The position numbers were made by a program, and so were the translations under genes. From contig OZ219753.1 of the NCBI GenBank assembly GCA_964291315.2, forward strand, positions 1,920,001-1,984,000: a DNA stretch of 64,000 nt. Reading direction: 5' to 3'. The notes under the pieces are model-generated. The model saw only the letters and a program-made list of their open reading frames with translations. It ran no database searches and had not been told where the DNA came from. Positions 3 through 61,049 of the stretch are shown here, piece after piece. Every line of letters starts with the position of its first letter. The stretch's first letter is position 1. Origin of the DNA: Candidatus Poribacteria bacterium. Its GTDB lineage: Bacteria; Poribacteria; WGA-4E; WGA-3G.

Positions 3-1433
3 ATCCGTGCCCTGGGCAACCCGCTTATCCAGACACCCGCCCTCGACCGTCTAGTCCGCGACGGAACAAGTTTTACCTCTGCCTACTGTCCATCTCCCGT
101 GTGTGTCGCATCGCGCTGCAGCTTCCTGCTCGGACAATGGCCACATCAAACCGGATGTACAACCAATTCACCCATGCCTCAGGATCGAACCTCGCTGATG
201 GAATTGCTCAACGAATCAGGCTATCAGACCCACGGTATTGGTAAAATGCATTTCACGCCACAAGGGCGCAAATTGTGGGGATTCGAAACACGCGACTATT
301 CCGAAGAAGGATCCGGACCAGATGACTTTACACAATTCCTACATGAAAACGGCTATGACCATGTCGTCGCACCACACGGAGAACGCAGCGAATACTACTA
401 TATCCCGCAACCTTCGCAACTCCCAGCCCGACTACACCAGACACAGTGGGTAGGCGATAAAACAATCCAATTCCTCTCGCGACGCGATACAAACCGCCCC
501 TTCTTCTGCTGGTCCAGCTTTATCAAACCGCATCCACCCTTTGAATCACCAGTGCCGTGGAACCGACTCTACCGCACCGTCGAAATGCCGCTCCCATTCC
601 TGCCACCCGACTATCAGCATCTGCATACTTACTGGAACCGACATCAAAACCGATATAAGTATCGGGACCAAGGACGAGATATGAATCTCCTGCGCACTAT
701 GCGGGCAGCATACTACGCCGCCATCTCTTTTATTGACTATCAGGTCGGACGAATTCTTGAATATCTCGAATCCACGAAAATCTTAAATAACACGCTGATC
801 GTCTACACATCAGACCACGGCGAATTGCTCGGCGACTACAACTGCTACGGGAAACGCGCCTTCCTTGACGCAGCCGCCCGAATCCCGCTACTCGTCCGAT
901 ATCCAGAACGTTTCCAACCACACACACAGTGCGACACACCGACCAGTCTCGTAGATGTACTGCCTACCTGCCTCGCTGCAGCCGGACTACCCCCGCAAAC
1001 AGAGCAGAGCGGCACAGACCTCGCAGATATCGCCAACGGAAAAGCACAACGCGAAGCTATCATCGGACAACTAGCACAAGAAGCCACCGGACTCTATATG
1101 TTCCTGACAAGCCAATATAAATATATCTATTCCGCTGCAGACCGTCAAGAGTGGCTCTTTAAACGTTCCCCAGGCAGACTCGATGAACGAAACCTCGCCG
1201 GAAATCCAGGATACAGTAGAATTCTCACAGATTACCGAAAACGCCTGATAGAACAATTCCGCAACGAACGTTACGAACGCCCGCTCAACGGCAATACTTG
1301 GCGAGACTTCCCACCACCTGCCGAACCTGAAAACCCCGATGCTGACCAACTGTTTCAAGACGGACGTTCCGTGAGCGATCAGTTCCCTCAAGGCTATTCC
1401 CCCAACATTGACACACTTAGACCGCAGTCTTAA
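3..1433 (+). CDS. Sulfatase (choline-sulfatase-like), 5'-truncated by the window edge
   Basis: Frame is open from base 3 (IRALGNPLIQTPALDRL...SPVCVASR). Has the formylglycine CxxSR motif, GKMH, and TSDHGE. Confidence 0.9.
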   Translation: MRALGNPLIQTPALDRLVRDGTSFTSAYCPSPVCVASRCSFLLGQWPHQTGCTTNSPMPQDRTSLMELLNESGYQTHGIGKMHFTPQGRKLWGFETRDYSEEGSGPDDFTQFLHENGYDHVVAPHGERSEYYYIPQPSQLPARLHQTQWVGDKTIQFLSRRDTNRPFFCWSSFIKPHPPFESPVPWNRLYRTVEMPLPFLPPDYQHLHTYWNRHQNRYKYRDQGRDMNLLRTMRAAYYAAISFIDYQVGRILEYLESTKILNNTLIVYTSDHGELLGDYNCYGKRAFLDAAARIPLLVRYPERFQPHTQCDTPTSLVDVLPTCLAAAGLPPQTEQSGTDLADIANGKAQREAIIGQLAQEATGLYMFLTSQYKYIYSAADRQEWLFKRSPGRLDERNLAGNPGYSRILTDYRKRLIEQFRNERYERPLNGNTWRDFPPPAEPENPDADQLFQDGRSVSDQFPQGYSPNIDTLRPQS

Positions 1434-1441
1434 GGTGAATC

Positions 1442-2782
1442 ATGCCAATCCGTGACTCTCTCAAGACATTGCTCTCAAAGACAGCATGGCACGCCTACAA
1501 TACCTACCGCCAAGGCGTAAGGTACAACCACCAACTTTCACAAACAGCAACGTTGTTGAATGGGGCACGCGAAACAATCATGACGTTTCAGGCAGAACGC
1601 CTCAAAAAACTCCTTCGACACGCATACCGGACAACCCCATATTACCGAGACCTGCTTAAAACAGAAACACCAGACATAGCCCAGATCCCACCCCTCGAGA
1701 AACAGCACATCCGCGCGCATCTAGACCGCCTCTGTTCGGAAACCTTCACTGCGAATCAACGAATTAAAAACGCCACCGGCGGCTCAACAGGAACACCCCT
1801 TACCTTCTATCAAGATAGATACTACTGGAATCAACGAAACTTAAGTGTCTACTACTTCGACCAATGGGCAGGCTGGAACTTCGGTGAACCGCAACTAGTC
1901 ATCTGGGGAGCCCCCACAGACCTAAAAAACGACGGACACTGGAAACATCAACTGAGCAAATTCTGGCGAAACCAATATTGGCTCAACGGCTTTCACCTCA
2001 CAGACGAGGCAATGCAAACAACGTTTGACAATATGCACCAATACCGACCACAAACAATCCTCAGCTATCCCTCTTCGCTCTATCAATTCGCTAAATTTCT
2101 CTCCGATAACCACTTGAAGCCGAAGTGGAAATTGAAAGGGATTATCGCTTCAGCCGAGATGCTCCATTCGCATTACCGCGAATTAGCGGAAACTGTTTTT
2201 GAAACGAAGGTCTTCAACCGATACGGCGGAAGAGAAGTCGGATTAATCGCCATGGAATGTACTGCAGGCAGGATGCACCTCAACTGCCGGGACCTCTACG
2301 TTGAAACAGACAGCCACACGCCATATAACGCACCAGGTGATGTGCTGATAACACAGCTCAACAACTACGTGATGCCTTTTATCCGCTACCGAATTGGAGA
2401 TATTGGCGTTCTCTCTGACGAAAGGTGTCCATGTGGCAACGAATCGCCTGTTCTAGCCGACCTACTCGGGCGCTCCACGGCAACATTCCAAACAAAAACC
2501 GGCACGCTGATACACGGCGGTTATTTCACCAAACAGTTCTACCACATCACAGGAGTGAATCAGTTCCAGCTCATTCAAGAAACCCTTCATCGATGCCTCT
2601 TGAAACTGGTTATTAACGAAGCGTGGACACAGGAAACCCGCCGCTATCTCGTCGAGAGTATCCAAAACGTGCTGGGGCCGGATGTTGCTGTCAGTATAAC
2701 GTTTGTGGATGAGATCCCACTTTCCGATTCAGGCAAACGAGAATTCACGATTTCAAAAGTCTATACGGATACGAATCGCTAA
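1442..2782 (+). CDS. Phenylacetate-CoA ligase family / CapK-like adenylate-forming enzyme
   Basis: TGGSTG P-loop, YGGRE, MPFIRYRIGD, and C-terminal SGK lysine motif. Confidence 0.8.
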   Translation: MPIRDSLKTLLSKTAWHAYNTYRQGVRYNHQLSQTATLLNGARETIMTFQAERLKKLLRHAYRTTPYYRDLLKTETPDIAQIPPLEKQHIRAHLDRLCSETFTANQRIKNATGGSTGTPLTFYQDRYYWNQRNLSVYYFDQWAGWNFGEPQLVIWGAPTDLKNDGHWKHQLSKFWRNQYWLNGFHLTDEAMQTTFDNMHQYRPQTILSYPSSLYQFAKFLSDNHLKPKWKLKGIIASAEMLHSHYRELAETVFETKVFNRYGGREVGLIAMECTAGRMHLNCRDLYVETDSHTPYNAPGDVLITQLNNYVMPFIRYRIGDIGVLSDERCPCGNESPVLADLLGRSTATFQTKTGTLIHGGYFTKQFYHITGVNQFQLIQETLHRCLLKLVINEAWTQETRRYLVESIQNVLGPDVAVSITFVDEIPLSDSGKREFTISKVYTDTNR

Positions 2783-5202
2783 ACATCCATCCTGCTACAG
2801 AGCTCCCGAAGCGTCGCGACACGCGCCGTGCCACCCGGCAGATACGCCAAAATCAAGCCATCAATCGGTAGACTACGGTCGGCGACAACCCCCGTGCTCC
2901 GCTCCGCTGTCACACCTTTGGAAAGAAGTAGATAGAAGGTATCCTTCTTCCAACCCGGAGTCGTAAAAAAATTTCCCTGCCCCTTTGAAATAACCACATC
3001 CGCCTCTACCACGGCATTGAAAAACTCAGCCGTTCCATGATACAGATTCGTCCCAATTGTCTTTGCCCCTGACGATAGCAACCGCACCTCTCCATGCTGA
3101 ATAGCCGTCTGAAGCTCCCGAAATTGCGGGTAACCCGCTATTTCATGCAAATCCGCAACCGTTGCATCGTTGCTAGCGTTCTCCGCTTTTCCAACAACCG
3201 TGATACGATGTCCACATGCCAAGAGGTCCTGAATGAACGCAATATCAAAGATCACTTCACCATCGTTATCGACAAGCCAGAGAATCGACTGCGCGGATCC
3301 GTCGATAACCCTCTCCCGGAACACTTCATAACAGTCTATAGCAAAAGGGGCATCCACCGCCGCCCGCAGCACCTCCGAAAAGTAGTCCGGATCCGCCTTT
3401 AACCGCTTCATAACCCGTTCACTGTTGTAATCAACGATATTTCCAGTGATAACCAGTTTGAGACGTTGCACCCAGTCGTCGCCCCAAAACTCCGGGAGCA
3501 GTTCCAGGGCAGTCTGCCTCGCCCTACGTTTATCGTGGTGGTAAGGGTTCGGATTGCCGCTATGAAGCGTTACCATCTCGAAAACGCTTCCCCAAATCTC
3601 TTCAGACGTGAGAGATTCAATCAGATACCCACCGTCGCAGCGGCGCATATCCAATAACGTTCGAACCGCCTCACACATAACCTCCTGGAGCTCCGGTGCG
3701 CGGGCTGCTCGCGGAATCAGCTCTGTAGCACTGTGCGACAGCACATGCTCACGAAGCTTCTCCCAATCCGGGAGTCCCCTCTTTTCACCAAACGTGAAGA
3801 TCCCCGGGATATACCCAGGTGACACAACCTCATCAAAAAGCAGCTTCGGTACCGAGGGCGGGGCTTCCGCCCGCGGTACACCCAGCGTTTTGTCCATCAA
3901 CGTCATACCCGCAGGAATTACAGTGCCGCGCGCCACAACCGACGATAGCTGAACGCTGCCCCCAACGTTTACCGCATCAAATCTAGAATCTTTAATCCAA
4001 CTCGCAGTCGCAAGACCCCGCACCGGGTCCGTGAGCACCTCAGGCAACCGGCTTGCCTCAAAGAGGGTATCGTTTGCAGAAACGTCCTTCAATCCAACCG
4101 ATGTACCTACCCGAGTCGCACCAAGCAGCGTCACATCTTCAAGTCTGCAATAGTCGCCAATCCGCACGTTCTCACCCAGATGCACCCGACCGATGAAATA
4201 GCACGCTGTCCCAATTTCAACGGACTCGCTCCCCAACATTATCTGTGCATCCGGATGAACGCGCATCCCCTTCCGAGCCAGAAACTCCCGCGTTCGTTCA
4301 AAGACAGCTTGCTCCCCCGCTAAAACGTTCGACCAGCGGTTCACGCCCGACAACACTTCGTCACGATAGATAAAAGCGTGCGTTTTCAACCCATCCTCAT
4401 AGCAGTGCCGAATGAGATCCACATGATGACGTTCGTTATTCCGATTCGCATGCGGTTGTAACCGATCTATTCTCTCTAACAAGACATCTTTGCGAATGAG
4501 CGTAATGCCGGTATTGGTATACGCTTCATCGTCGCACCACAGAGTCCACATGTCCTGTTTTTCTCCCACCGTCATATCGTACCACTCTTTAGTCCCGGTG
4601 AGGTTTCCATCCATGTCAAAGAACAGAGCGCCTTTGTCCACAACAGTTTCAGGGACTTTCCCGCATAAAGTGACATCTGCTCTGGAGATAAAGTGGGCGA
4701 GGAGGGTTTGTGCGAAAATCTCTCTCTCTAAAAACGGTTCATCCCCGAACGAGACACCAATCCATTCAGCGTCCGATTCACGGAGGAGCGGAAGCGCTGC
4801 CCGTAACGCCCCACCCGTCCCGTCCATCTTTTCTTGGACACAGAAAACCGCGTTCGAACCTAACAACCGCTCTGCAGATTCGCGACCCTCAATTCTAGCT
4901 GCCATCTCTGGATTGATAACTATAATATCCGGGCGAGTCCCCGGCAGATACCGGCGAGAACGTTGAAGCATATTCTGCTCCCCAAATGTGATGTCCAACG
5001 TCTTACTCAAACGTCCAGTGGGATCGATACGGGTGCCCTTACCCGCCGCCAGCACCACCCACTGAGGCGTAAGCTGATTCTTAAACGCATCTGTCGGAAG
5101 TGAGGAAAGGAAAGTTTCAAGTGTCTCTATATCTGCCTCGATCGCCTCAAGTGTGTCTTCTAATTTGCAACCGAGCAGGTTCTCAAGAAAGTCTGTTTTC
5201 AT
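2779..5202 (-). CDS. GlmU-like nucleotidyltransferase fused to a C-terminal ARMT1/DUF89 metal-dependent phosphatase domain
   Basis: N-terminal VLAAGKGTR and GTGGAL, a hexapeptide-like middle, and C-terminal GNIVDY, DNDGEVIFD, NDAT, ISKGQGNF. Confidence 0.75.
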   Translation of the reverse strand: MKTDFLENLLGCKLEDTLEAIEADIETLETFLSSLPTDAFKNQLTPQWVVLAAGKGTRIDPTGRLSKTLDITFGEQNMLQRSRRYLPGTRPDIIVINPEMAARIEGRESAERLLGSNAVFCVQEKMDGTGGALRAALPLLRESDAEWIGVSFGDEPFLEREIFAQTLLAHFISRADVTLCGKVPETVVDKGALFFDMDGNLTGTKEWYDMTVGEKQDMWTLWCDDEAYTNTGITLIRKDVLLERIDRLQPHANRNNERHHVDLIRHCYEDGLKTHAFIYRDEVLSGVNRWSNVLAGEQAVFERTREFLARKGMRVHPDAQIMLGSESVEIGTACYFIGRVHLGENVRIGDYCRLEDVTLLGATRVGTSVGLKDVSANDTLFEASRLPEVLTDPVRGLATASWIKDSRFDAVNVGGSVQLSSVVARGTVIPAGMTLMDKTLGVPRAEAPPSVPKLLFDEVVSPGYIPGIFTFGEKRGLPDWEKLREHVLSHSATELIPRAARAPELQEVMCEAVRTLLDMRRCDGGYLIESLTSEEIWGSVFEMVTLHSGNPNPYHHDKRRARQTALELLPEFWGDDWVQRLKLVITGNIVDYNSERVMKRLKADPDYFSEVLRAAVDAPFAIDCYEVFRERVIDGSAQSILWLVDNDGEVIFDIAFIQDLLACGHRITVVGKAENASNDATVADLHEIAGYPQFRELQTAIQHGEVRLLSSGAKTIGTNLYHGTAEFFNAVVEADVVISKGQGNFFTTPGWKKDTFYLLLSKGVTAERSTGVVADRSLPIDGLILAYLPGGTARVATLRELCSRMDV

Positions 5203-6669
5203 TCAAGTATTGTTCTCTAATTCTGTCTGGATATTCTGAAATTGAGCCAACGTTGCCTCTAAATTCTCAGTAATCTCTGCTATTAAGACCTCCGGAGCCG
5301 GAAGGTCTACCGCATCTTCAGCCGCATCCTCATTTAACCAGAAAATATCAAGGTTGACATGCTCCCGCTCAATAAGCTCCTGATAACCAAACGCACGAAA
5401 TCGCTCTGTCTCCATACGCGCGCCGCGGTCCTCCGGTCTATAGACAGAGATAAAATCTTGCAAATCCGTCTCTTGCAGCGGATTCGTCTTGAGCGTAAAA
5501 CGTTTATTTGTGCGTAAATCGTAGATCCAAAGCTTCTCTGTCCACGGTTCTTCGCGCGCCGGCCTCTTATCGAAAAAGAGAACGTTGGCTTTGACACCTT
5601 GCGCATAGAAAATGCCGGTCGGCAGACGTAAAAGCGTATGCACATCAAATTGATTGAGCAGCTGATGCCGAATCGTCTCTCCCGCACCCCGCTCAAACAG
5701 CACATTATCCGGCAGCACCACAGCGGCGCGCCCATCTGTTTTCAGGAGAGTCTTGATATGCTGCAGGAAGTTGAACTGCTTATTTGACGTCGTCGCCCAA
5801 AAATCATCACGTTCATAAGTCGACGATGTAACCCGCCGCTTACGCCCCTCAGCACTGATCGAAATGCTGCTCCTATTCCCAAACGGCGGATTGGTCAGCA
5901 CAATGTCATAGCGAGCCCCTGTGTCGCGACTCAGGCTATCCGCAGTCGTTATGGGACTCTCGCTGCCACCAACACCGTGCAAATATAAATTCATCACACA
6001 CAGGCGAACAACATTATCCACGATGTCTGTGCCAGCGAAGGTGTTAAATCTAAGAAATTCTTTCTGCTCACGCGTCATCCTACTGCCATAATTCTCGGAG
6101 ATATAGTCGCGCGCCGCAAGAAAAAAACCACCCGTGCCACACGCAGGATCACAGATAGTCTGCATCGGCACCGGACGCATCACAGCCACCATCGCTTTGA
6201 TGAGCGGGCGCGGCGTAAAATATTGACCCGCCCCGCTCTTCGTATCTTCAGCATTTTTCTGTAGAAGCCCCTCATAAATCGTGCCTTTAATGTCCGCAGT
6301 CAGCCCGCTCCAATTCTCCGCATTGATAAGACCAATAAGCCGCTGCAGACTCGCAGGAGTCTGAATGCGATTCTGCGATTTCCTGAAGATGACACCCAGT
6401 AACCCCGCCGCATTGCTCAATTCGCTTAGAATTTTAACATACTGCGTCTCTAACGCAGCACCGCTCTCCTTGAGCAGGCTCTCCCAATCCAAACCTGCTG
6501 GAATTGTTGAACGCTTATTGAAAGGCGGTTTGGTCTGTTCATCAGCAAGTTTCAAAAATAGGAGATACGTCAACTGTTCAACGTAATCTCCATAACTCAC
6601 CCCATCATCTCGAAGCACGTTACAGAAATTCCAAAGCTTTTGAACAATCGTAGCCGATTCATTTGCCAT
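5203..6669 (-). CDS. hsdM: Type I R-M methyltransferase subunit
   Basis: GQYFTPR, DPACGTGGF (motif I), NPPF (motif IV). Confidence 0.95.
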   Translation of the reverse strand: MANESATIVQKLWNFCNVLRDDGVSYGDYVEQLTYLLFLKLADEQTKPPFNKRSTIPAGLDWESLLKESGAALETQYVKILSELSNAAGLLGVIFRKSQNRIQTPASLQRLIGLINAENWSGLTADIKGTIYEGLLQKNAEDTKSGAGQYFTPRPLIKAMVAVMRPVPMQTICDPACGTGGFFLAARDYISENYGSRMTREQKEFLRFNTFAGTDIVDNVVRLCVMNLYLHGVGGSESPITTADSLSRDTGARYDIVLTNPPFGNRSSISISAEGRKRRVTSSTYERDDFWATTSNKQFNFLQHIKTLLKTDGRAAVVLPDNVLFERGAGETIRHQLLNQFDVHTLLRLPTGIFYAQGVKANVLFFDKRPAREEPWTEKLWIYDLRTNKRFTLKTNPLQETDLQDFISVYRPEDRGARMETERFRAFGYQELIEREHVNLDIFWLNEDAAEDAVDLPAPEVLIAEITENLEATLAQFQNIQTELENNT

Positions 6670-6720
6670 TTTTTGTGATAATTCTCCCTCAGTTGCCGGG
6701 GGCAGTGTGTATAATAATTT

Positions 6721-7044
6721 TCATGATTCAGACGAATCACAATCTGTCAAACCATTTTGATTTTGGTACTCAGCCAGCACAGCGGCTGCAATATAGTCAT
6801 CGTGCCGTTCACCGATATCCGTAACATCAGCTTGCAACGTCCCTGCCAACGCAAGCAACGGATCCGGGTCATCTTCCGACCCCTTAACCACCCGTATCTC
6901 CGGCGGAAATGCGACATCTGACGTAGCCATATCACTCCAGTTAAGCGTCCCCGCAAGTGCAAGGAGCGGATCGGTCTCTACTGTCTGTCCCAGTGCCTCT
7001 TCCCGTTTGACCCTACGCATCTGATCCATTCTATTTTCCCTCAT
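6721..7044 (-). CDS. Small hypothetical protein with a duplicated DPLLALAGTL motif (antitoxin-like)
   Basis: 107-aa ORF co-oriented between hsdS and hsdM; ends ..DIGERHDDYIA.. Confidence 0.55.
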   Translation of the reverse strand: MRENRMDQMRRVKREEALGQTVETDPLLALAGTLNWSDMATSDVAFPPEIRVVKGSEDDPDPLLALAGTLQADVTDIGERHDDYIAAAVLAEYQNQNGLTDCDSSES

Positions 7045-7126
7045 CAGTAGTAACTGTCATCATTCAGTGAACGACTTCCCAATCATACAACTTCATTTTA
7101 ACACAGACATTCAATTCAATGCCATG

Positions 7127-8419
7127 TTAATGTTCTGTCTCCATTCGCGCCAGAATCCGCTCTGCCGGCTCATCTGTCGAATCCTGCGCAACGAGTTCAC
7201 CGGAGAACGCGTGCTGCAAAATAGACCGCCGCAAACGTTCAGCACGCGTCAGCTCTGCCGTGATGGTCGCTTCAACCTCATCAGCAGCTGAAAGGCATCG
7301 CTCAACTTCAGAGAGGATGTGCTCTTGCTCTGCCAGTGACGGAAGTGGAATCTCAACTTTCAACGGAAAATTACGAGAGATACCACCAACAGTAGCTCCT
7401 CGAAAATCTGAAAGGATCTCTTGCTGCCCGTTGCTACTAAAAAGATAATAAAACACGAATTTTGGGAAGGCAATCTCTGAGTCTACCCGCACAATAAACA
7501 GATGCTCATTAACCGCAGCCTCTTCATATGGGAAATCGCTATCAACAAAACTGGTTTTCCCAGTTGTTGCTCCATCTTTCACAACGATAATGTCGTTTGG
7601 GTAAATACGTCCTCTGTTCAGTGATTTAAAAAACGCTGCAGGAATATATCTTATTTTTTCAAAGTTAAAACGGCCATCTGCATTTAAGTGTTCGCCGCCA
7701 AGGCTGGGTATTCCTTCAAGAATTCCACGGACTCCGCCTCGTGGGCGTGAGCCACTTTCAAGCGTGATGCATTCACTCAACTTCATGCTTTGCCAAGCCC
7801 CTGTGTGTGCTTCCCGCCATTCCTTCGTCAACGCTCCTTCGAACGCAGCTTTGAGGATCGACCGCCTATACTGCTGCAGCTGCACTTGCACGTTTTTGAG
7901 GCAGGCAACCGCTGCGTCTAAGTGTGTAAAGAGCACCTCTAGCTTGGATACAATGCGACGCTGCTCCGCCAGCGGTGGAAGCGAAAAAGTGAATTTTCCT
8001 AAAGCGTTCCATGAAGTCCTTGGAAGCGTTATACCTGACGATGTCGACACAGCGTAACGCCTGAAAGACCGACTGTGGAGAAAATAGACCAGAAATCTCG
8101 GGATCACTTTTGAATTAGCAGTCAAAACTAGAATATCGGTGGAGCAAACACCTTCTATCTCAGCAATAACCACTTTATCTAGATACGGCCTCAATCTACC
8201 ATACAAAACATCATTAGGATAAAAACGAGCTTTCACACTTCTTACCTCCGAGGCATCGCCCCAACGTTCCAGATAGCTCACCCCTGAATCAATATGCTTA
8301 AGGCCTACAAAGTTTAAGCGCCCGCTCCTCTCCTCAGGTTGCATGTTCTCACGCCTTAAATTAACTATCTCTTTGAGTTGGACGGTTTCCCAATGATCCG
8401 GCGAAATCCGTTTGTTCAT
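7127..8419 (-). CDS. hsdS: Type I R-M specificity subunit (two TRDs)
   Basis: Repeated LPPLAEQRRIV / LPSLAEQEHIL and SILKAAFEGAL / SILQHAFSGEL conserved regions. Confidence 0.95.
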   Translation of the reverse strand: MNKRISPDHWETVQLKEIVNLRRENMQPEERSGRLNFVGLKHIDSGVSYLERWGDASEVRSVKARFYPNDVLYGRLRPYLDKVVIAEIEGVCSTDILVLTANSKVIPRFLVYFLHSRSFRRYAVSTSSGITLPRTSWNALGKFTFSLPPLAEQRRIVSKLEVLFTHLDAAVACLKNVQVQLQQYRRSILKAAFEGALTKEWREAHTGAWQSMKLSECITLESGSRPRGGVRGILEGIPSLGGEHLNADGRFNFEKIRYIPAAFFKSLNRGRIYPNDIIVVKDGATTGKTSFVDSDFPYEEAAVNEHLFIVRVDSEIAFPKFVFYYLFSSNGQQEILSDFRGATVGGISRNFPLKVEIPLPSLAEQEHILSEVERCLSAADEVEATITAELTRAERLRRSILQHAFSGELVAQDSTDEPAERILARMETEH

Positions 8420-8555
8420 CGTGTTCCGCTCCCGTTCAACCGTATCTGTATCAACATATTTCTTGATGTCTTTTCCCTCTTTTCCACTATTTGCAATTTC
8501 ATTTGCGATTGTGATAATCTCCTCTATACCTACTTTTCTGCCACACAGAGAGAAA

Positions 8556-10967
8556 TCAAGAAACCAAGCTCTCGGTTAGATCCTTTAAGAGAGCATCTAA
8601 ACCCTCCCCAAAAAGCTCATAGATTTTCGCACCGTTCCCCAACTCTACAAAAGGCGGATCCTCAAAGTCGGACCTCCGAATATCAAGCGAAGTGGCAATA
8701 TGATCCCGTATCATCCCCAGCCACTCTCTTTGTTCATCTGTGATGTTTTTCCCATGCAACCATTCAACAAAACGACGATTCACCGTCTGCCTGAAAGGCT
8801 CCAGAAAACCGTTCTCTCCTACGGCATACCGCACGAGAGAAATAAGATCCATACGCTGCTCCGTATCTCCGCGAACGTTTTCTGGATACCGTCTTTTGTA
8901 GGCCAACCATACCGCCTCGCGACTCAAACTGTTTGAATGCCCTTGCAAAGCCTCCTCTAACGTTTTCAAGTTGCCCTCGCTTAGCCGCCCGCTCGCCCCT
9001 GGCACCCTACACAGAATTTGCAACGCTGATAATTCCGCTACATTTTCATTAATAAACGCTTTAAAGGCGTGCAGCACCGCAGCCACCTGCGTGAAACTTT
9101 GATCGTCAAAACCGGCGCCAATCACCCGATCCTCGCTAATATCGTCAATTAACTGGTCCGGATCTCTCCTCGGTACGTCGCTTGCATCAGCTGGAGGCGG
9201 TGCATCCGAAAGCGGTTGCGAATCCGTTTTGACAGACTCAATGACACCGACAGCATCAACAACGATAAAATGCGTCTTGCCAACCGCATCACCCGTGACA
9301 GCCCGCAAATCGTCACGACTAATGACGCGCACCCCGCGCCCAATCATCTGCTCAAAATAGCCGCTAGAACGCACAACACGCATAAAAACCAAACATTCAA
9401 GCGGTTTTATATCCGTACCCGTAGAAATCATATCCACACTCACCACGATCCGCGGATTTAATTGTGTCCGAAAACTTCTGATCAAATCCTCCGGCCTATC
9501 GCTCTGATACGTAATCTTTTGGCAGAACGCATCCCCCTTCGCGAACACCTCCCGAACAATACCCACAATATCCTCGGCATGCGTATCGTCTTTCGCAAAA
9601 ATAAGCGTCTTCGGAACAATACCTCTGCTCGGGAAAAGGTCACTAAAAAGTTTATCCTTGAACGTCTGAATCACCTTCCGAATTTGGTCTACGGCAACCA
9701 CATCCCGATCCAACTGGTGCCCCGTATATTCAACATCAGCATCCAATTCATCCCAATGGAGGCGACGGCTCTCCTTCTCTCGCCTTGCCACATAATGCCC
9801 GGCTCCAACCACGCCGCCGCTTCGTGTAATCTCGGTCTGAATCTGATAAACGTAGTAACCAACATTTACATCGTCTGCAACCGCCTCCTCATGCCGGTAT
9901 TCATAAACAAGGTTGTGATCAAAAAATCCGACAGTCTGTCTATACGGGGTTGCAGTGAGTCCAATGATAAACGCGTCGAAGTATGTGAGCACATGCTGCC
10001 ACTTCCCGTAAATAGAACGGTGACACTCATCCACGATGATAACATCGAAGGTATCCATCGGAATTGACGGATTATACGCAACCTCCAGCGTCTGCTCGTC
10101 TTCATGTTCAAACGCAGAGGCCTCCTCAGCGTCTGTTTCGTACGTGGTTTCCCCTTTTAACATGGCGTAGAGACGTTGGATAGTCGTGATACAGACCGCA
10201 GTGGCCTCATCAATAACGTTGCTGGAGAGGTGTTGAACGTTGTAAAGTTCCGTAAATCTTCTGCCATCGTCAGACGTTGTATAATTCTCGAACTCGTTGA
10301 GCGTTTGTCTACCCAAGTTCCGCCGGTCTACAAGAAACAACACCCGTTTGACCCCGGCGAATTGGATCAGCCGATAGGCGGCAGTCACAGCAGCGTGTGT
10401 TTTCCCGCTACCCGTCGCCATCTGGATTAACGCCCGAGGCCGCGACTCTTTTAAAGAGACTTCAAGCTGCGTTATCGCCTCAAATTGGCACGCTCTCAGC
10501 GATCCTTTCTCTAACGGCGGTAAATCCGCCTTAAGTCTCTCCCGAAGAGTCCTCGGCTCAACCGCCCGACGAGACAACGTATCCGGGGTATGGAACGTGA
10601 ATACCCGGCGCGAATTCGCATCTGGATCCCGAACATCACAGAAGTAGGTCTCAACGCCCGTTGACGCATACGAAAACGGCACATTAGCAAAACGTTTTAA
10701 GCCATCCGGTAAACTGGCACGATACCGAGCCGCCTGCTGAATGCCCCCACTGAGCGTTGTCCCCTCCGCTTTCGCTTCTATAACGCCCACAGCAGTCCTA
10801 TTGATAAAAAGCAGGTAATCCGCTCGATAACCGGATTTCAACGGATACTCGCGCACCGCAACCCCACCCGCAGCAGCCGGGGCACACCCAGCATAATCTT
10901 CTATCAGCCATCCCGTAGCTGCCAGCATACTGTCTATCTTATCTCTTGCTTTCTCTTCAGGAGTCAT
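8556..10967 (-). CDS. hsdR: Type I R-M restriction subunit (EcoEI/EcoKI-like)
   Basis: ADYLL..VIEAK nuclease motif, MATGSGKT Walker A, DECH, QMIGRG. Start placed at MTPEEKARDKID. Confidence 0.92.
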   Translation of the reverse strand: MTPEEKARDKIDSMLAATGWLIEDYAGCAPAAAGGVAVREYPLKSGYRADYLLFINRTAVGVIEAKAEGTTLSGGIQQAARYRASLPDGLKRFANVPFSYASTGVETYFCDVRDPDANSRRVFTFHTPDTLSRRAVEPRTLRERLKADLPPLEKGSLRACQFEAITQLEVSLKESRPRALIQMATGSGKTHAAVTAAYRLIQFAGVKRVLFLVDRRNLGRQTLNEFENYTTSDDGRRFTELYNVQHLSSNVIDEATAVCITTIQRLYAMLKGETTYETDAEEASAFEHEDEQTLEVAYNPSIPMDTFDVIIVDECHRSIYGKWQHVLTYFDAFIIGLTATPYRQTVGFFDHNLVYEYRHEEAVADDVNVGYYVYQIQTEITRSGGVVGAGHYVARREKESRRLHWDELDADVEYTGHQLDRDVVAVDQIRKVIQTFKDKLFSDLFPSRGIVPKTLIFAKDDTHAEDIVGIVREVFAKGDAFCQKITYQSDRPEDLIRSFRTQLNPRIVVSVDMISTGTDIKPLECLVFMRVVRSSGYFEQMIGRGVRVISRDDLRAVTGDAVGKTHFIVVDAVGVIESVKTDSQPLSDAPPPADASDVPRRDPDQLIDDISEDRVIGAGFDDQSFTQVAAVLHAFKAFINENVAELSALQILCRVPGASGRLSEGNLKTLEEALQGHSNSLSREAVWLAYKRRYPENVRGDTEQRMDLISLVRYAVGENGFLEPFRQTVNRRFVEWLHGKNITDEQREWLGMIRDHIATSLDIRRSDFEDPPFVELGNGAKIYELFGEGLDALLKDLTESLVS

Positions 10968-11036
10968 CGCACAGTTCCGGTAGGCGCACACCCAACCTTT
11001 ATCTGCTAACATGAAATACGGGCAAGGCAGCTCTTT

Positions 11037-11061
11037 TGTAGCATAACCTGTTAGGTTGGAC
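11037..11061 (+). repeat. GTAG-type REP-like palindrome
   Basis: tGTAGCATAACCTGTTAGGTT; same family as the copies at 13.1, 29.4 and 49.0 kb. Confidence 0.55.
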
Positions 11062-11143
11062 AATTTACCTGCTAACCATAAGATAGGGGCAGGCAAAAGC
11101 ATAGAACAGAGAAACCCGCCCCTATCCGCCCACTTAGGCATCT

Positions 11144-11899
11144 TTAAACATTACACACATCAAACGCATGCTGCATCGCCTCAAACGCATCGCCCTTCGG
11201 GCCAAACTCATGCCCAACGTAAAGCTCATACCCCGTATCGACGATCGCACGCATCACAGCCGGATAGTAAATCTCTTGCTCGTCATCGAGATCGTGACGA
11301 CCCGGATTACCCGCTGTATGATAATGCCCAATGTATTCACTATAGTCCGTGATGTTCCGAATGAGGTCGCCCTCCATGATCTGCATGTGGTAGATGTCGT
11401 AAAGCAGCTGCGCCCGCGGCGAACCAACCCCTTTACAAACCTCAACGCCCCATGCTGTCTTATCGCACTGATAATCCGGATGGTTAACCTTACTATTGAG
11501 CAGCTCAATACACAGGTTGATACCCTTCTCTTCAGCAGCTTTCGTAACGCGGGACAAGCCCTCTATCGTGTTATCACGACCCTCTTCTTCCGACCTGCCC
11601 TCCCGGTTACCAGAAAAACAGATGAGCCCCGGAATATCGTTCTCCGCTGCAATATCAATATTTCGAAGAAGCTCATCTTCAATCCGAGCATGGTTACTCG
11701 GATCGTTTAAGCCCGACGGAAGCGAAGCGTGACCCACTATAATCGCAACACGCATCCCATGATCCTTCACCACAGGCCAATACTCTGCAGGAAGCATCTC
11801 AACCGATTTATAACCGATCTCAGCAGCTCGCTTGATAACCGCAACAGGATCCCTGCCACGACTGAAACCACCAAAACAGATAGACTGATTAATTGGCAT
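11144..11899 (-). CDS. Hydroxypyruvate isomerase-family TIM-barrel protein
   Basis: ELLNSKVNHPDY, LLYDIYHMQIMEGD, HYHTAGNPGRH. Confidence 0.85.
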   Translation of the reverse strand: MPINQSICFGGFSRGRDPVAVIKRAAEIGYKSVEMLPAEYWPVVKDHGMRVAIIVGHASLPSGLNDPSNHARIEDELLRNIDIAAENDIPGLICFSGNREGRSEEEGRDNTIEGLSRVTKAAEEKGINLCIELLNSKVNHPDYQCDKTAWGVEVCKGVGSPRAQLLYDIYHMQIMEGDLIRNITDYSEYIGHYHTAGNPGRHDLDDEQEIYYPAVMRAIVDTGYELYVGHEFGPKGDAFEAMQHAFDVCNV

Positions 11900-55951: not shown

Positions 55952-55994
55952 CCAAACTGAACCCAAATCCCCCGTACATAAAAAGGAGAACACC

Positions 55995-57206
55995 ATGAAC
56001 GTCAAACCGAAAACCATCTTCACCGGCGATAACCTACAGATCATGCGCGGCATAAATAGTGAATCCGTTGACCTTATCTATCTTGACCCGCCTTTCAACA
56101 GCAATGCCAACTACGCTGCCCCCATCGGCTCACAAGCCGCAGGGGCGGAGTTCAAGGACACCTGGACGCTCAAAGATGTAGACATCACTTGGCTCGACCT
56201 CATTGAGACAAAGCATCCCGCTCTCAACCGTGTTATCCACGCTGCAATGGTAGACAGCGATAAGGCATACCTCATCTACATGGCAGTCCGGTTACTGGAA
56301 ATGGAACGCGTCCTCCGCAAAACAGGCTCTATCTATCTACACTGTGACCCTACAATGTCGCATTATCTGAAACTGGTGATGGACGCTATTTTCGGAAGAA
56401 AGAACTTCCGTAATGAGTGTGTCTGGTGCTATAAAGAAAACGAAACAGCAACCAAATGGTTTCCCCCAAAACATGATGCTATACTATTTTATACGAAAAA
56501 CAGAGATAGTGAATACACCTTCAACATTGTCCGTTCAGGTATAACTGAATCACAAAAAAAGAGATACAATATTATAGACGAGAACGGTGACAGATGGGCA
56601 AATATGAAGGGTAAGATGAGAAAACTAAATCCGAAAGGTGCAAAAGTTCGGGACTGGTGGGAAATACCGATAGCACAATCGCCTGAAAAGACAGGATACC
56701 CGACCCAGAAACCGCTCAAGTTGTTAGAACGCATCATCAAAGCATCTTCAAATGAAGCTGATGTTGTCTTCGACCCCTTCTGTGGCTGTGCGACAACCTG
56801 TGTAGCAGCAGATAGGCTGCAGCGCAACTGGATAGGTATTGACATCAGCCCGAAAGCCGCAGAGCTAGTCGTCAGGCGCATAAAGAACGAGCAAGGCCTG
56901 TTCCAAAAGATTATTCAACGAACAGATATTCCTAAACGCACAGATTTAGGTAACATACCGCGATACAATAGCCCTCAAAACAAAACAGAGCTATATGGCA
57001 AACAAGAAGGATACTGCAGCGCATGCGAAGAACACTTCAAAATGCGACATCTTGAAGTTGACCACATCATCGCTAAATCCGTGGGAGGCACCGATCACAT
57101 CTCTAACCTCCAACTCCTTTGCAGCAACTGCAATCGCATAAAAGGCAACCGAAGCCACGAAGACCTTCTCATCAAACTCAAAAGCGAAAGGGCTAAGAGA
57201 AAGTAG
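55995..57206 (+). CDS. Beta-class DNA methyltransferase-HNH endonuclease fusion, copy 1
   Basis: DLIYLDPPF (motif IV) precedes the TRD and YPTQKP..DPFCGCATT (X/I). C-terminal CxxC..VDHI..GG.D...NLQLLCxxCN HNH domain. Confidence 0.88.
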   Translation: MNVKPKTIFTGDNLQIMRGINSESVDLIYLDPPFNSNANYAAPIGSQAAGAEFKDTWTLKDVDITWLDLIETKHPALNRVIHAAMVDSDKAYLIYMAVRLLEMERVLRKTGSIYLHCDPTMSHYLKLVMDAIFGRKNFRNECVWCYKENETATKWFPPKHDAILFYTKNRDSEYTFNIVRSGITESQKKRYNIIDENGDRWANMKGKMRKLNPKGAKVRDWWEIPIAQSPEKTGYPTQKPLKLLERIIKASSNEADVVFDPFCGCATTCVAADRLQRNWIGIDISPKAAELVVRRIKNEQGLFQKIIQRTDIPKRTDLGNIPRYNSPQNKTELYGKQEGYCSACEEHFKMRHLEVDHIIAKSVGGTDHISNLQLLCSNCNRIKGNRSHEDLLIKLKSERAKRK

Positions 57207-57214
57207 AGAACACT

Positions 57215-58417
57215 ATGAACGTCAAACCGAAAACCATCTTCACCGGCGATAACCTACAGATCATGCGCGGCATAAATAGTGAATCCGTTGACCTTATCTA
57301 TCTTGACCCGCCTTTCAACAGCAATGCCAACTACGCTGCCCCCATCGGCTCACAAGCCGCAGGGGCAGAGTTCAAGGACACTTGGACGCTCAACGATGTA
57401 GACATCACTTGGCTCGACCTCATTGAGACAAAGCATCCCGCTCTCAACCGTGTTATCCACGCTGCAATGGTAGACAGCGATAAGGCATACCTCATCTACA
57501 TGGCAGTCCGGTTACTGGAAATGGAACGCGTCCTCCGCAAAACAGGCTCTATCTATCTACACTGCGACCCTACAATGTCGCATTATCTGAAACTAGTGAT
57601 GGACGCTATTTTCGGAAGAAAGAACTTCCGTAATGAGATTGTGTGGTGCTATAAGTCAGGCGGTGCAACATCAAAATACTTCGCTAAAAAACATGAAATT
57701 ATTTTGTTTTATAGTAAAAATAATGCTTACAAGTTCAACCCGATCAAAGAAAAAAGTTATCAAGGTATTGGATACAATACAGGAAATAAGAACGTGACTC
57801 TGTATGAAGATGAACATGTAAATACTCTGGGACCACATACATTGGTAAATCTCAAAGACTGGTGGGAAATAAGAATGTTAGCCACATCATCTAAGGAACG
57901 AACAGGTTACCCGACTCAAAAACCACTAAAATTACTTGATCGGATCATCAAAGCATCTTCAAATGAAGGGGATGTTGTCTTCGACCCCTTCTGTGGCTGT
58001 GCGACAACCTGCGTCGCAGCAGATAGGCTGCAGCGCAACTGGGTAGGCATTGACATCAGCCCGAAAGCCGCAGAGCTAGTCGTCAGACGCATAAAGAACG
58101 AGCAAGGCCTGTTCCAGAAGATTATTCAACGAACAGATATTCCCAAACGCACAGATTTAGGTAAGATCCCACGATACAACAGCCCCCAAAACAAGACAGA
58201 GCTATACGGTAAACAAGAAGGATACTGCGGGGGATGTAGAGAGCACTTCCAGATGCGACATCTTGAAGTTGACCACATCATCGCTAAATCCGTGGGAGGC
58301 ACCGATCACATCTCTAACCTCCAACTCCTTTGCAGCAACTGCAATCGCATAAAAGGCAACCGAAGCCACGAAGACCTTCTCATCAAACTCAAAAGCGAAA
58401 GGGCTAAGAAAAAGTAG
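57215..58417 (+). CDS. Beta-class DNA methyltransferase-HNH endonuclease fusion, copy 2
   Basis: Same architecture as copy 1 with a different central TRD. Confidence 0.88.
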   Translation: MNVKPKTIFTGDNLQIMRGINSESVDLIYLDPPFNSNANYAAPIGSQAAGAEFKDTWTLNDVDITWLDLIETKHPALNRVIHAAMVDSDKAYLIYMAVRLLEMERVLRKTGSIYLHCDPTMSHYLKLVMDAIFGRKNFRNEIVWCYKSGGATSKYFAKKHEIILFYSKNNAYKFNPIKEKSYQGIGYNTGNKNVTLYEDEHVNTLGPHTLVNLKDWWEIRMLATSSKERTGYPTQKPLKLLDRIIKASSNEGDVVFDPFCGCATTCVAADRLQRNWVGIDISPKAAELVVRRIKNEQGLFQKIIQRTDIPKRTDLGKIPRYNSPQNKTELYGKQEGYCGGCREHFQMRHLEVDHIIAKSVGGTDHISNLQLLCSNCNRIKGNRSHEDLLIKLKSERAKKK

Positions 58418-58425
58418 AGAACACC

Positions 58426-59619
58426 ATGAACGTCAAACCGAAAACCATCTTCACCGGCGATAACCTACAGATCATGCGCGGCATGAACAGTGAATCCGTT
58501 GACCTTATCTATCTTGACCCGCCTTTCAACAGCAATGCCAACTACGCTGCCCCCATCGGCTCACAAGCCGCAGGGGCAGAGTTCAAGGATACCTGGACGC
58601 TCAACGATGTAGACATCACTTGGCTCGACCTCATTGAGACAAAGCATCCCGCTCTCAACCGTGTTATCCACGCTGCAATGGTAGACAGCGATAAGGCATA
58701 CCTCATCTACATGGCAGTCCGGTTACTAGAAATGGAACGCGTCCTCAGCAAGACAGGCTCTATCTATCTACACTGTGATCCCACAATGTCGCATTACCTC
58801 AAGCTTACAATGGACGCTATCTTTGGTAGGAAGAACTTTCGCAATGAGATTGTGTGGTCATATAAAACAGGTGGCGCGAGCAAAAAAAAGTTCTCAGAAA
58901 AACACGATATAATCCTATCCTACAATAAATCTAAAAGATTTACATTCAACCCGCAAAAAGAAAAATCATATACAAAGAGTAAATCAAGACAACCAGGTAT
59001 TGTCAACTACGGTGGAGGCACATCCGAATTCTTTAAGGATAAACAAGGTGTTTTCAACTATGTAAATATGCGTGATGTCTGGGAAATAAGTTATGTAGGA
59101 TCAACATCACCTGAGAGAACAGGCTATCCGACACAGAAACCCCTTGCACTCTTAGAACGCATCATCAAAGCATCTTCAAATGAAGGGGATGTTGTCTTCG
59201 ACCCCTTCTGTGGCTGTGCGACAACCTGTGTAGCAGCAGATAGGCTGCAGCGCAACTGGGTAGGCATTGACATCAGCCCGAAAGCCGCAGAGCTAGTCGT
59301 CAGACGCATAAAGAACGAGCAAGGCTTATTCCAGAAGATCATCCATCGGGCAGATATTCTCAAACGCACAGATTTAGGTAATATTCCCCGATACAACCAC
59401 CCTAGAAACAAAACAGAGCTATATGGCAAACAAGAAGGATACTGCAGAGGATGTAAAGAACATTTCAAAATGCGACATCTTGAAGTTGACCACATCATCG
59501 CTAAATCCGTGGGAGGCACCGACCATATCTCTAACCTCCAGCTCCTTTGCAGCAACTGCAATCGCATAAAAGGCAACCGAAGCCATGAAGACCTCCTCAC
59601 CAAACTCAAATCAGAATAA
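58426..59619 (+). CDS. Beta-class DNA methyltransferase-HNH endonuclease fusion, copy 3
   Basis: Same architecture with a third distinct TRD. Confidence 0.88.
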   Translation: MNVKPKTIFTGDNLQIMRGMNSESVDLIYLDPPFNSNANYAAPIGSQAAGAEFKDTWTLNDVDITWLDLIETKHPALNRVIHAAMVDSDKAYLIYMAVRLLEMERVLSKTGSIYLHCDPTMSHYLKLTMDAIFGRKNFRNEIVWSYKTGGASKKKFSEKHDIILSYNKSKRFTFNPQKEKSYTKSKSRQPGIVNYGGGTSEFFKDKQGVFNYVNMRDVWEISYVGSTSPERTGYPTQKPLALLERIIKASSNEGDVVFDPFCGCATTCVAADRLQRNWVGIDISPKAAELVVRRIKNEQGLFQKIIHRADILKRTDLGNIPRYNHPRNKTELYGKQEGYCRGCKEHFKMRHLEVDHIIAKSVGGTDHISNLQLLCSNCNRIKGNRSHEDLLTKLKSE

Positions 59620-59703
59620 CCGCTTTTTCGGTGATCCCAGGATCGATACTGTTTTTCGACTCGGCAAGCCGGTAGCTATCTTCCAAAATTGAGCGAACCG
59701 CGT

Positions 59704-60810
59704 TCATCGTTTATCCTCAAATAGATGCAACGGCGCACTCGGGGATTCCGTGAGACGCCGCCGGGCCTCTTTACAATATTCAGCATTAATATCATAACCG
59801 ATATAATGCCTACCCAACCTCTTACAAGCAACTGCGGTTGACCCGGAACCCATGAATGGATCTAGCACTAATGCACCAGAAGGCGTGAGGAGGTGTAGGA
59901 ACTCTTCCACAACTTCAACCGGATAGATTGCCGGATGTTTATTCCCTTTAACGGTGGCCACTGATGTTTCAATTACATCTCGCTTGAGTCTATTACCGTG
60001 CATCCGAATAATTGTAAATCCTTTGTTTCTTAATTGCAGGGTGCGTCCGCCTAACTGTCCACCGAAGGGCTCTGAATGAATACCCCGAATTTTCATCCGA
60101 AAACTATGTGTCTGCCCTTGCATTACTTCTTGGATGACTTCCGTGAGCTCACGCCGCGCAAGCGTTTTTTCTGCTTCAGACAAATCAGATTCTGCGATGA
60201 GTTCAAAATAGCGCTGCCCGACCTTAGTACGCGCTTTTTTACGTGATTGCTTTGGGGCCCGCTCTTTTGCTAAGAAAGCGTTCGGATCATAGAAATAACC
60301 GCCTGATTTGACAAAGTGAAAAAACGGTTCTGTGCTACTAACAAGACGGCGACGAAATTGGCGCGGAGTCGGATTCCGTTTAACCCATGTGACCTCGTTT
60401 ACCAGTTTAACCAGACCTGTCTCCGTCGCAGCAATCGCAAACCGGTACGGGGCAAGCAGTAGGTTACTATCTTCATATTTGTCCCCTATATTGAAAACAA
60501 TACTACCGTCTTTTTTCACAACCCGCACACACTCGTGGAAGAGACGGAGCAATGTATCAATATATGCCTCAACATCACTTTCGTTGCCGATACCGCCACC
60601 ATAATCGCGCTGTTGAAAATACGGCGGAGAAGTAATTACCAATTGAATACTACAACCAGGTAGCTTCTGGATGAGTTCAAGGTTGTCACCGCACAGAATT
60701 TCGTCTATGGGAACGGATTTGTTAACATTTCGGGTATTTTCAGATATGTCCGACATAACATTTAAGATTGTTAATGTTTTAAGAACGTTTCTCAATGAGT
60801 CTTCCGACAA
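59704..60810 (-). CDS. Solitary beta-class site-specific DNA methyltransferase (SPPY, probably N4-C)
   Basis: VITSPPY, HPAIYP, VLDPFMGSGST. Confidence 0.88.
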   Translation of the reverse strand: MSEDSLRNVLKTLTILNVMSDISENTRNVNKSVPIDEILCGDNLELIQKLPGCSIQLVITSPPYFQQRDYGGGIGNESDVEAYIDTLLRLFHECVRVVKKDGSIVFNIGDKYEDSNLLLAPYRFAIAATETGLVKLVNEVTWVKRNPTPRQFRRRLVSSTEPFFHFVKSGGYFYDPNAFLAKERAPKQSRKKARTKVGQRYFELIAESDLSEAEKTLARRELTEVIQEVMQGQTHSFRMKIRGIHSEPFGGQLGGRTLQLRNKGFTIIRMHGNRLKRDVIETSVATVKGNKHPAIYPVEVVEEFLHLLTPSGALVLDPFMGSGSTAVACKRLGRHYIGYDINAEYCKEARRRLTESPSAPLHLFEDKR

Positions 60811-60961
60811 AAAAGATGAGAACGCCGAGCGTCAGGAACCCCATTTCAACGCCCATTGCTTTGGCTTCACTATAATCAAACGGATTGACACATCCCAAAT
60901 AGAGAGCTGCCCCTAAGCACACTATCCCCATCAGTTCCAGAGTCTTACCGATATAATACAC
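60779..60961 (-). CDS. Small two-TM membrane protein
   Basis: GGAGAA RBS before GTG; two hydrophobic helices. Confidence 0.5.
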   Translation of the reverse strand: MYYIGKTLELMGIVCLGAALYLGCVNPFDYSEAKAMGVEMGFLTLGVLIFFVGRLIEKRS

Positions 60962-61049
60962 GACTTCTCCAATGCTATTGGCTACTATTCGATAAGACTG
61001 TAGGGCAAATTTCCGCAACACCCTACAGCCACAAGCCCACAATAACGAA

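Follow-up and report, generated by a model that had tools for sequence, protein, structure and literature searches.

Can a single protein of about 400 amino acids both methylate DNA and cut it, and can its target be changed by exchanging one internal segment? These questions are raised by three tandem genes in a 64,000-nucleotide stretch (hereafter the window, whose coordinates we use throughout) of the genome of a Candidatus Poribacteria bacterium (GenBank assembly GCA_964291315.2, contig OZ219753.1, positions 1,920,001 to 1,984,000 of the forward strand). Each gene encodes a beta-class DNA methyltransferase fused to an HNH nuclease domain at the C terminus, and the three differ most in a central segment that is the presumed target-recognition domain. 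Our analysis points, with some reserve, to three one-gene restriction-modification units that share a scaffold and differ in specificity.

The genes lie head to tail on the plus strand. Gene 1 (55995..57206, 403 amino acids), gene 2 (57215..58417, 400 amino acids) and gene 3 (58426..59619, 397 amino acids) are separated by 8-nt spacers at 57207..57214, where AGAACACT follows the TAG stop codon, and at 58418..58425. The sequence AGAACAC[C/T] precedes each of the three ATG codons. A repeat search detected 300-nt direct repeats with 98–99% identity, which start 1220 and 1211 nt apart. The open reading frames and repeats thus confirm the layout described in an earlier inspection of the DNA (the sequence-only reading), namely three genes of about 400 amino acids, 8 bp apart, with these periods and the shared start AGAACAC[C/T]ATG. 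Tandem Repeats Finder, whose longest period is 500 nt, is blind to the trio and its null output is not informative. Scans for promoter-like sites (10 versus 8.8 expected) and terminator-like sites (4 versus 6.0) did no better for the trio than shuffled controls.

All three proteins matched Pfam N6_N4_Mtase (PF01555) with 157–167 bits against a cut-off of 26.7 (E = 1.2e-45, 2.2e-47 and 9.9e-49 for genes 1, 2 and 3) and Pfam HNH (PF01844) with 52–53 bits against a cut-off of 21.4 (E = 9.1e-14, 7.1e-14 and 2.9e-14). Their motifs run from DPPF (amino acids 31–34) through a variable block (142–232) to TGYPTQKP, FDPFCGC (about 259–265, within FDPFCGCATT) and a C-terminal CxxC...DH...N...CxxCN. In beta-class enzymes, the catalytic (D/S)PP(Y/F) motif is followed by a variable region, the target-recognition domain, and then by the FxGxG motif that binds S-adenosylmethionine. 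Judged by this order, the trio matches the beta class and the variable block sits where a target-recognition domain belongs, in agreement with the sequence-only reading. The HNH domains occupy amino acids 341–386 in gene 1 (57015..57152; C341, C344, D356, H357, N371, C376, C379 and N380), 338–383 in gene 2 (58226..58363) and 340–385 in gene 3 (59443..59580); the first two were defined by Pfam, alignment and residue conservation, the third by Pfam.

The residues expected at both active sites are retained. DPPF was kept in all 65 aligned relatives, as were the HNH aspartate, both asparagines and all four cysteines, with the histidine present in 64. Among 82 diverse representatives of 50% clusters, the aspartate and each cysteine were found in all 82, the first asparagine in 81, the histidine in 80 and the second asparagine in 80 (the remaining two carry histidine). 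By these counts, both predicted catalytic centers are conserved across relatives, and the proposal of an amino-methyltransferase joined to an intact HNH domain stands. The DPPF motif, together with adenine-specific NCBIfam neighbors that all scored below cut-off, suggests that the methylation product is N6-methyladenine (m6A).

Comparisons with solved structures gave similar assignments. By sequence, the best solved relatives are M.MboIIA, M.BceJIV, CcrM, DpnA, EcoP15I Mod and M.RsrI. An AlphaFold model of gene 2, in which the predicted local distance difference test score is only 66.6 and the variable block is poorly predicted, matched CcrM, M.BceJIV, M.RsrI and M.MboIIA in Foldseek (E = 9e-16 to 1e-13), followed by type III Mod (E up to 5e-11). 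The C-terminal 105 amino acids consist of a conserved linker and the HNH domain, for which the nearest profiles are the HNH domains of IscB and Cas9. This tail matched NCBIfam IscB (E = 1e-11), PADLOC PtuB (E = 1.3e-8) and Cas9 (E = 9e-8), and one type II restriction model, REase_II, with scores well under the family cut-offs (42–45 bits versus 175 for IscB).

Overall protein identity among the three genes is 83–85%, and the differences are unevenly placed. Within the first 423 nt, genes 1 and 2 differ at 5 positions and gene 3 differs from either at 23, most of them clustered beside the variable block. Over the last 495 nt there are 37–51 differences between genes, in patches, and identity is ~90–93%. 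The claim that both ends are nearly identical in DNA therefore applies to the 5′ part, whereas the 3′ part is less well conserved. Across the central ~270 nt, DNA identity drops to 28–65%. As delimited by segment comparison, the variable segments comprise amino acids 142–232 of gene 1 (91 amino acids; 56418..56690), 142–229 of gene 2 (88 amino acids; 57638..57901) and 142–231 of gene 3 (90 amino acids; 58849..59118), and their protein identity is 34–45%. A divergent interval of ~85–90 amino acids had been proposed; the divergence is real, but the first ~35 amino acids are semi-conserved (W..YK...F..KH..IL.Y.K), and in the alignment the hypervariable core is ~45–55 amino acids long.

Several other features of these genes were seen. 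The G+C content of the variable segments is 0.35–0.39, compared to 0.47–0.50 in their flanks and 0.487 in the window, which may reflect either foreign origin or a composition rich in lysine and asparagine. The first HNH zinc knuckle (CSACEE, CGGCRE and CRGCKE) and the linker just before it form a further small variable patch (~57000–57040, 58210–58250 and 59430–59470), in which the differences between the genes in their 3′ halves are concentrated. Poly-A tracts occur in the variable segments of gene 3 (A8, 58884–58891) and gene 1 (A7, 56558–56564); short tracts of this kind can drive frameshift switching in mod genes.

The indication that the variable segments are exchanged came from comparing them with their scaffolds. 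Within the trio, the segments of genes 1 and 2 are 36–38% identical, while their flanks are 97–99% identical; the gene 1 segment is 34–38% identical to the other two, and that of gene 2 is 36–44% identical to those of genes 1 and 3. Comparisons with foreign proteins show the reverse of this pattern: each trio segment has counterparts that are 72–84% identical on catalytic scaffolds with only 43–78% identity. Gene 2 and P0002 share 84% identity in the segment and 78% in the flanks; for gene 3 and P0021 the values are 69% and 75%. The gene 1 segment is 72% identical to those of P0271, P0272 and P0274, although the N-terminal parts are only 52–55% identical (52% for P0272), and it is 66% identical to that of P0275, a plain methyltransferase of 259 amino acids with an N-terminal part 56% identical. 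Similarly, gene 3 and P0277 share 81% identity in the segment, 44% in the N-terminal part and 52% in the C-terminal part of the methyltransferase. A segment that is better conserved than the catalytic core reverses ordinary divergence, indicating that segments have moved between scaffolds or that flanks have been homogenized around old segments.

The 120 closest homologs fall into a single cluster at 70% identity when the N-terminal scaffold is compared, and into 25–28 clusters when the segments are. These comparisons thus support a modular exchange of recognition segments among diverged scaffolds, as the notion of exchangeable specificity cassettes in the sequence-only reading implied. Since synonymous sites in the trio flanks are near-identical, the latest exchange or homogenization event at this locus was recent. 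The same recognition segments are also present on plain methyltransferases of 253–289 amino acids that lack a nuclease.

The fusion belongs to a large family. A search of 5.8 billion proteins scored at least 8000 candidates, all of which passed, and PF01555 and PF01844 were both present in all 120 homologs listed. Where a source name is given, which is the case for few, it is "hypothetical protein" or "DNA methyltransferase" of Candidatus Poribacteria. Used alone, the linker and HNH module matched 9409 and 703 cluster representatives at thresholds of E ≤ 1e-3 and E ≤ 1e-10, respectively, and the ESM Atlas holds several clusters of 56–87 members in which 96–100% carry both domains. Among species-representative genomes, 595 of 604 pattern matches encode relatives. 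The best 80 genome loci encode proteins with 42–65% identity, and the lineages mentioned in the titles of these records are Acidobacteriota, Chloroflexota/Dehalococcoidia, Poribacteria, Alpha- and Gammaproteobacteria, Rhodothermales, Longimicrobiales, Opitutales, Cyanobacteria, Bacteroidia, Spirochaetia and one Nitrosopumilus. Going by the names, we take many of these lineages to be sponge-associated. In the phylum of the window, matches at E ≤ 1e-60 occur in 68 of the 101 genomes.

Viruses and plasmids contribute little to this distribution. None of 46 matching plasmid records covers at least 80% of the fusion protein, and only one of 60 cultured phage records does. Among the best 80 viral contigs, three encode the whole fusion, a few more reach residues 371–383, and the remainder match the methyltransferase part only. 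On these counts, we dismissed the idea that phages or plasmids are the main carriers from which the fusion originates.

The genome that contains the window carries eight methyltransferase-HNH genes, consisting of the trio and five solitary copies, and the variable segments of the eight are all different (22–46% identity, 88–165 amino acids). This 4.4-Mb genome also yielded 71 methyltransferase-like matches to the beta-class query, an unusually large complement. Tandem arrays of the same design as the trio were found in at least seven other genomes, so that the architecture picked out by the sequence-only reading, and its tandem form, recur in relatives. Three arrays, of four copies (G013, between housekeeping genes), three copies (G061) and two copies (G069), have flanks that are 81–96% identical and segments that are 23–55% identical. 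Five of the best 80 loci are multi-copy: L075, L077 and L033 contain three, four and two genes, all with HNH tails, and L098 and L106 contain three and five genes that have the same scaffold (N-terminal part 52–57% identical) but end in T5orf172/MUG113 instead of HNH. The L106 array spans 4735–11727 of its locus and the L098 array 12–3728; in the last L098 copy, Pfam found no tail, though tblastn found tail fragments. The two-copy G069 array is followed by a defense-type gene whose 503-amino-acid product contains an Apea-like HEPN domain (L030, 7220–8728).

The nuclease tail itself varies between relatives. Among the best 80 loci, 73 have an HNH tail, six have T5orf172 and one is cut by the contig end. 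The segment type of gene 3 is also present in methyltransferases of 480–506 amino acids that end in an Mrr_cat domain of the restriction-endonuclease fold, where the segments are 64–72% identical; one such relative, P0333, comes from Brachyspira hyodysenteriae and bears the name "DNA methyltransferase". Of 82 representatives of the linker and HNH module that are at least 200 amino acids long, 66 have it joined to an N6_N4 methyltransferase. These domain assignments indicate that the nuclease module is interchangeable on the methyltransferase scaffold. That three unrelated nuclease folds (HNH, T5orf172 and Mrr_cat) occupy one position on one kind of methyltransferase argues that the tail is kept for cutting DNA, and we consider this the strongest comparative argument. 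In the excerpted text of PMC4738411, HNH and T5orf172 are both counted among the nuclease domains of m6A restriction-modification systems.

We also examined the genes next to the best 80 loci. Only one family recurred among the 146 immediate neighbors, namely the IS1595 transposase, which Pfam detected 13 times and clustering 14 times; the others were one RE_XamI restriction enzyme and housekeeping genes. In all, 145 families were matched, and there was no helicase among the 25 families listed for these neighbors. A gene for Res, the partner of type III Mod proteins, was found neither beside the trio nor among the 146 neighbors. By these neighborhoods, the fusions are stand-alone genes with no conserved partner, consistent with the single-gene arrangement proposed earlier.

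The model we favor, to which we assign a probability of roughly 0.55, is that each protein is a one-gene restriction-modification unit. Each would methylate adenines in its own motif on host DNA, and the same recognition segment would bring the HNH nuclease to incoming DNA wherever that motif is unmethylated, making a compact unit similar to type IIC enzymes. Solved beta-class methyltransferases act as dimers, and by this likeness the fusion probably does so too. The array would have formed by tandem duplication and recombination, with either the import of foreign recognition segments or the homogenization of flanks by gene conversion, to leave three specificities on one scaffold.

Several points weigh against this model. 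We found no report in the literature of cleavage, a methylation motif or a phage phenotype for any family member. In PADLOC-DB 2.0, the best 25 of 89–95 matching families are MTase_II, MTase_III or orphan methyltransferases, with no fused or restriction model among them. One model in that database, PDLC03339 (399 positions), was considered as possibly including HNH and was ruled out, as the tail alone gives no match to it. The HNH tail resembles those of PtuB, Cas9 and IscB about as well as that of a type II restriction enzyme. Eight fusions in a 4.4-Mb genome would be a heavy load if all restrict, and how an enzyme of ~400 amino acids with neither a translocase nor a second site would spare newly replicated host DNA is unexplained. 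Finally, carriage by IS1595 elements fits a purely selfish role equally well.

Such a role is the alternative that survives best, although we consider it unlikely. The fusions would be selfish mobile cassettes whose nuclease works for the element, helping it to spread or be retained, instead of defending against phages; this could occur through homing-like cleavage of empty or unmethylated sites or through post-segregational killing that stabilizes IS1595-type transposons. The IS1595 transposase adjoins the fusion gene in 14 of ~78 loci, and in 11 of the 14 it lies directly upstream on the same strand. A 9-mer search for IS1595 ends was discarded because such matches are too frequent by chance, and long inverted repeats were used instead. 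With this approach, inverted repeats of 26–38 nt with GGGAATTAT-like ends were found to flank the transposase and fusion gene in three of five loci tested. Two of these IS1595-family elements carry a methyltransferase-HNH gene behind the transposase (L052, 4936–7416, and L068, 4893–7508), and the third carries a methyltransferase-T5orf172 gene (L105, 4924–7732), with a second IS1595 copy ~4 kb downstream. The spread of the fusion over many phyla at 42–65% identity, including the Nitrosopumilus record, suggests frequent transfer.

The position of the trio also bears on mobility. It lies in a strain-specific island (about 55952..60785) between a conserved gene for a 311-amino-acid protein of unknown family and genes for a small membrane protein and a CBM9 protein. 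Among 31 genomes of the same genus, including that of the window, the left neighbor is present in 31 and the CBM9 gene on the right in 29. In eight same-genus genomes, the two flanking genes are 267–305 bp apart, representing the empty site (that of L117 aligns to window positions 60786–61026), and in the others they are separated by 0.75–12.7 kb. By this comparison, the gap is an integration hotspot of the genus, with the trio as strain-specific cargo, which speaks for a mobile cassette.

Other evidence is less easily reconciled with selfish elements. No IS1595 transposase was detected by tblastn in the whole genome that contains the window, the forward GGGAATTAT-like end was not found in the window, and the trio, unlike the genes in L052, L068 and L105, does not have the marks of IS1595 transposon cargo. 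Moreover, 55 of the 73 loci with HNH tails have no IS1595 transposase within 6 kb, and homing leaves the presence of many different segments on one scaffold unexplained. Selfish behavior and defense are also not mutually exclusive for restriction-modification genes.

The remaining part of the island contains a fourth N6_N4 methyltransferase gene (59704..60810, minus strand; Pfam E = 2.3e-47), which is convergent to the trio and encodes a protein of 368 amino acids with an SPPY motif and no nuclease domain. Cargo at this site in relatives includes a methyltransferase gene of this family that encodes 345–359 amino acids and is 77% identical in DNA to the fourth gene of the window. In three genomes (L111, L112 and L122), it adjoins a gene for a protein of 383–385 amino acids that matches no Pfam family and could be its restriction partner. 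The window lacks the latter gene and has the trio in its place. Other cargo in the hotspot (L111–L128) includes Uma2, TnpB, DDE and other transposases, and large AbiEi-like proteins. In L113 (G101, 164–4008), an insertion that encodes a C5 cytosine methyltransferase and a 252-amino-acid protein of unknown family along with an IS1595 transposase splits the N6_N4 methyltransferase gene into fragments of 159 and 164 amino acids.

A further alternative, still less likely in our judgment, is that the proteins are epigenetic or repair methyltransferases in which HNH acts as a nickase or DNA clamp, so that the array diversifies methylation rather than restriction. CcrM, which bears an extra C-terminal DNA-binding domain to which the HNH could be likened, is among the best fold matches; the closest profiles to the HNH tail are those of IscB and Cas9, whose HNH domains cut single strands; neither a restriction partner nor a translocase was present beside the trio or among the neighbors of relatives; and the plain methyltransferases described above carry the same segments with no nuclease. 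Against a role in binding, the catalytic D-H...N...N residues and zinc ligands are kept in 80–82 of the 82 diverse representatives, and the occurrence of three unrelated nuclease folds at one C-terminal position points to selection on cleavage. In addition, the genomic setting is a variable island and not a conserved housekeeping locus.

The last alternative is an assembly artifact, in which alleles of one locus from co-existing strains were placed end to end. The repeats are near-identical across 420 nt, and no public contig bridges the whole array, the contigs of the sampled runs being fragmentary. Strain variation also exists: run X3 contains single-base variants and, in one contig of a related population, a different joint, from a gene end (57187) to the region upstream of gene 1 (55979) via 39 other letters. 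This joint suggests that another strain has its copies in a different order or has one copy more. However, the window lies within a ~3.26-Mb contig of a four-contig genome, and arrays of this design recur in the other genomes listed above. In run X1, the word depths of the three segment-specific pieces (2955, 2963 and 3303–3353) are similar to those of single-copy flanks (3073 and 3333), as they are in run X2 (765, 988 and 986 versus 886 and 938), which argues against alleles of one locus, as these would share that depth; contig depth is a poor measure, and these runs, which may be the source sample, hold 80–83% of the sampled words. In run X4, a 156-nt piece spans a junction between the end of one gene and the start of the next (57089–57244). 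The depths and the junction piece thus favor a true tandem, as the sequence-only reading held, and the array is probably not an artifact, an explanation we regard as very improbable.

If each fusion is indeed a one-gene restriction-modification unit, the implications extend beyond this locus. We found no description of a methyltransferase-HNH fusion in the literature, a search outside of which lay REBASE, subscription journals and preprint supplements; the family is common but, within that search, undescribed, although it may already be catalogued in REBASE. We tentatively suggest, at less than an even chance, that these proteins form an unrecognized class of minimal, modular restriction-modification enzymes of ~400 amino acids, built from a beta-class methyltransferase into which a recognition segment and a C-terminal nuclease (HNH, T5orf172 or Mrr) can each be plugged, and that this class is distributed across bacterial and archaeal phyla, partly as IS1595 cargo. 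Tandem arrays would then be a standing library of specificities that is re-assorted through near-identical flanks, and one short locus would give multi-target immunity that can be quickly re-aimed. The carriage by IS1595 elements provides a concrete route for moving fusion units between phyla. Defense finders would score the family as methyltransferase only, so that symbiont-type genomes reportedly rich in orphan methyltransferases may hide restriction units, of which the genome studied here would have eight. The 25 or more types of recognition segment on one scaffold constitute a natural experiment in how DNA specificity is encoded, and new enzymes that cut or nick specific sequences might be drawn from this segment library.

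How do the trio proteins compare with known systems? The HNH domain has the CxxC...DH...N...CxxC layout common to IscB, Cas9 and Septu PtuB; the likeness is confined to this domain, and the trio proteins have no RuvC domain, guide RNA or ATPase partner. CcrM, M.BceJIV, M.RsrI and M.MboIIA are the best matches in sequence and fold for residues ~1–300, but these enzymes lack a nuclease domain and are only 20–23% identical to gene 2 in fold alignments. In type I hsdS cassettes, alternative recognition modules lie side by side and recombine between conserved flanks. The trio resembles them in keeping together several recognition modules, which would be exchanged via conserved flanks; however, hsdS genes encode separate S subunits, often within inverted repeats and with a recombinase, whereas the trio consists of whole enzyme genes in direct repeat, with no recombinase among the adjoining open reading frames.

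The type III Mod proteins, such as EcoP15I Mod and Mbo45V Mod, resemble the trio in being beta-class m6A methyltransferases in which a variable recognition region lies between conserved N- and C-terminal parts. The trio matches them in PADLOC (MTase_III), by sequence and by fold. That strains exchange alleles of the central region of mod genes is well known. Type III systems differ in having a separate Res helicase-nuclease encoded beside mod, while the nuclease of the trio is fused and there is no ATPase.

The closest functional parallel is with type IIG/IIL enzymes such as MmeI and BpuSI, which are ~900–1000 amino acids long and likewise unite nuclease, m6A methyltransferase and one target-recognition domain in a single polypeptide. 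As described in excerpts of three papers, their specificity is altered by changing the single recognition domain (PMC4752239, PMC2582602, PMC3185434). From N to C terminus, they consist of a PD-(D/E)XK nuclease, a gamma-like methyltransferase and the recognition domain. The sequence-only reading had set the trio apart from these mostly gamma-class enzymes, and this distinction agrees with the excerpt of a 2025 preprint in which all type IIG enzymes annotated in REBASE are gamma-like or of a non-beta class (10.1101/2023.12.13.571470; see also PMC4752239). The trio proteins do not have the type IIG/IIL architecture; they consist instead of a beta-class methyltransferase, a central recognition segment and a C-terminal HNH domain in ~400 amino acids. 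Should the fusion both methylate and cut, it would be the first single-chain restriction-modification design built on a beta-class methyltransferase and, to our knowledge, the smallest single-chain design.

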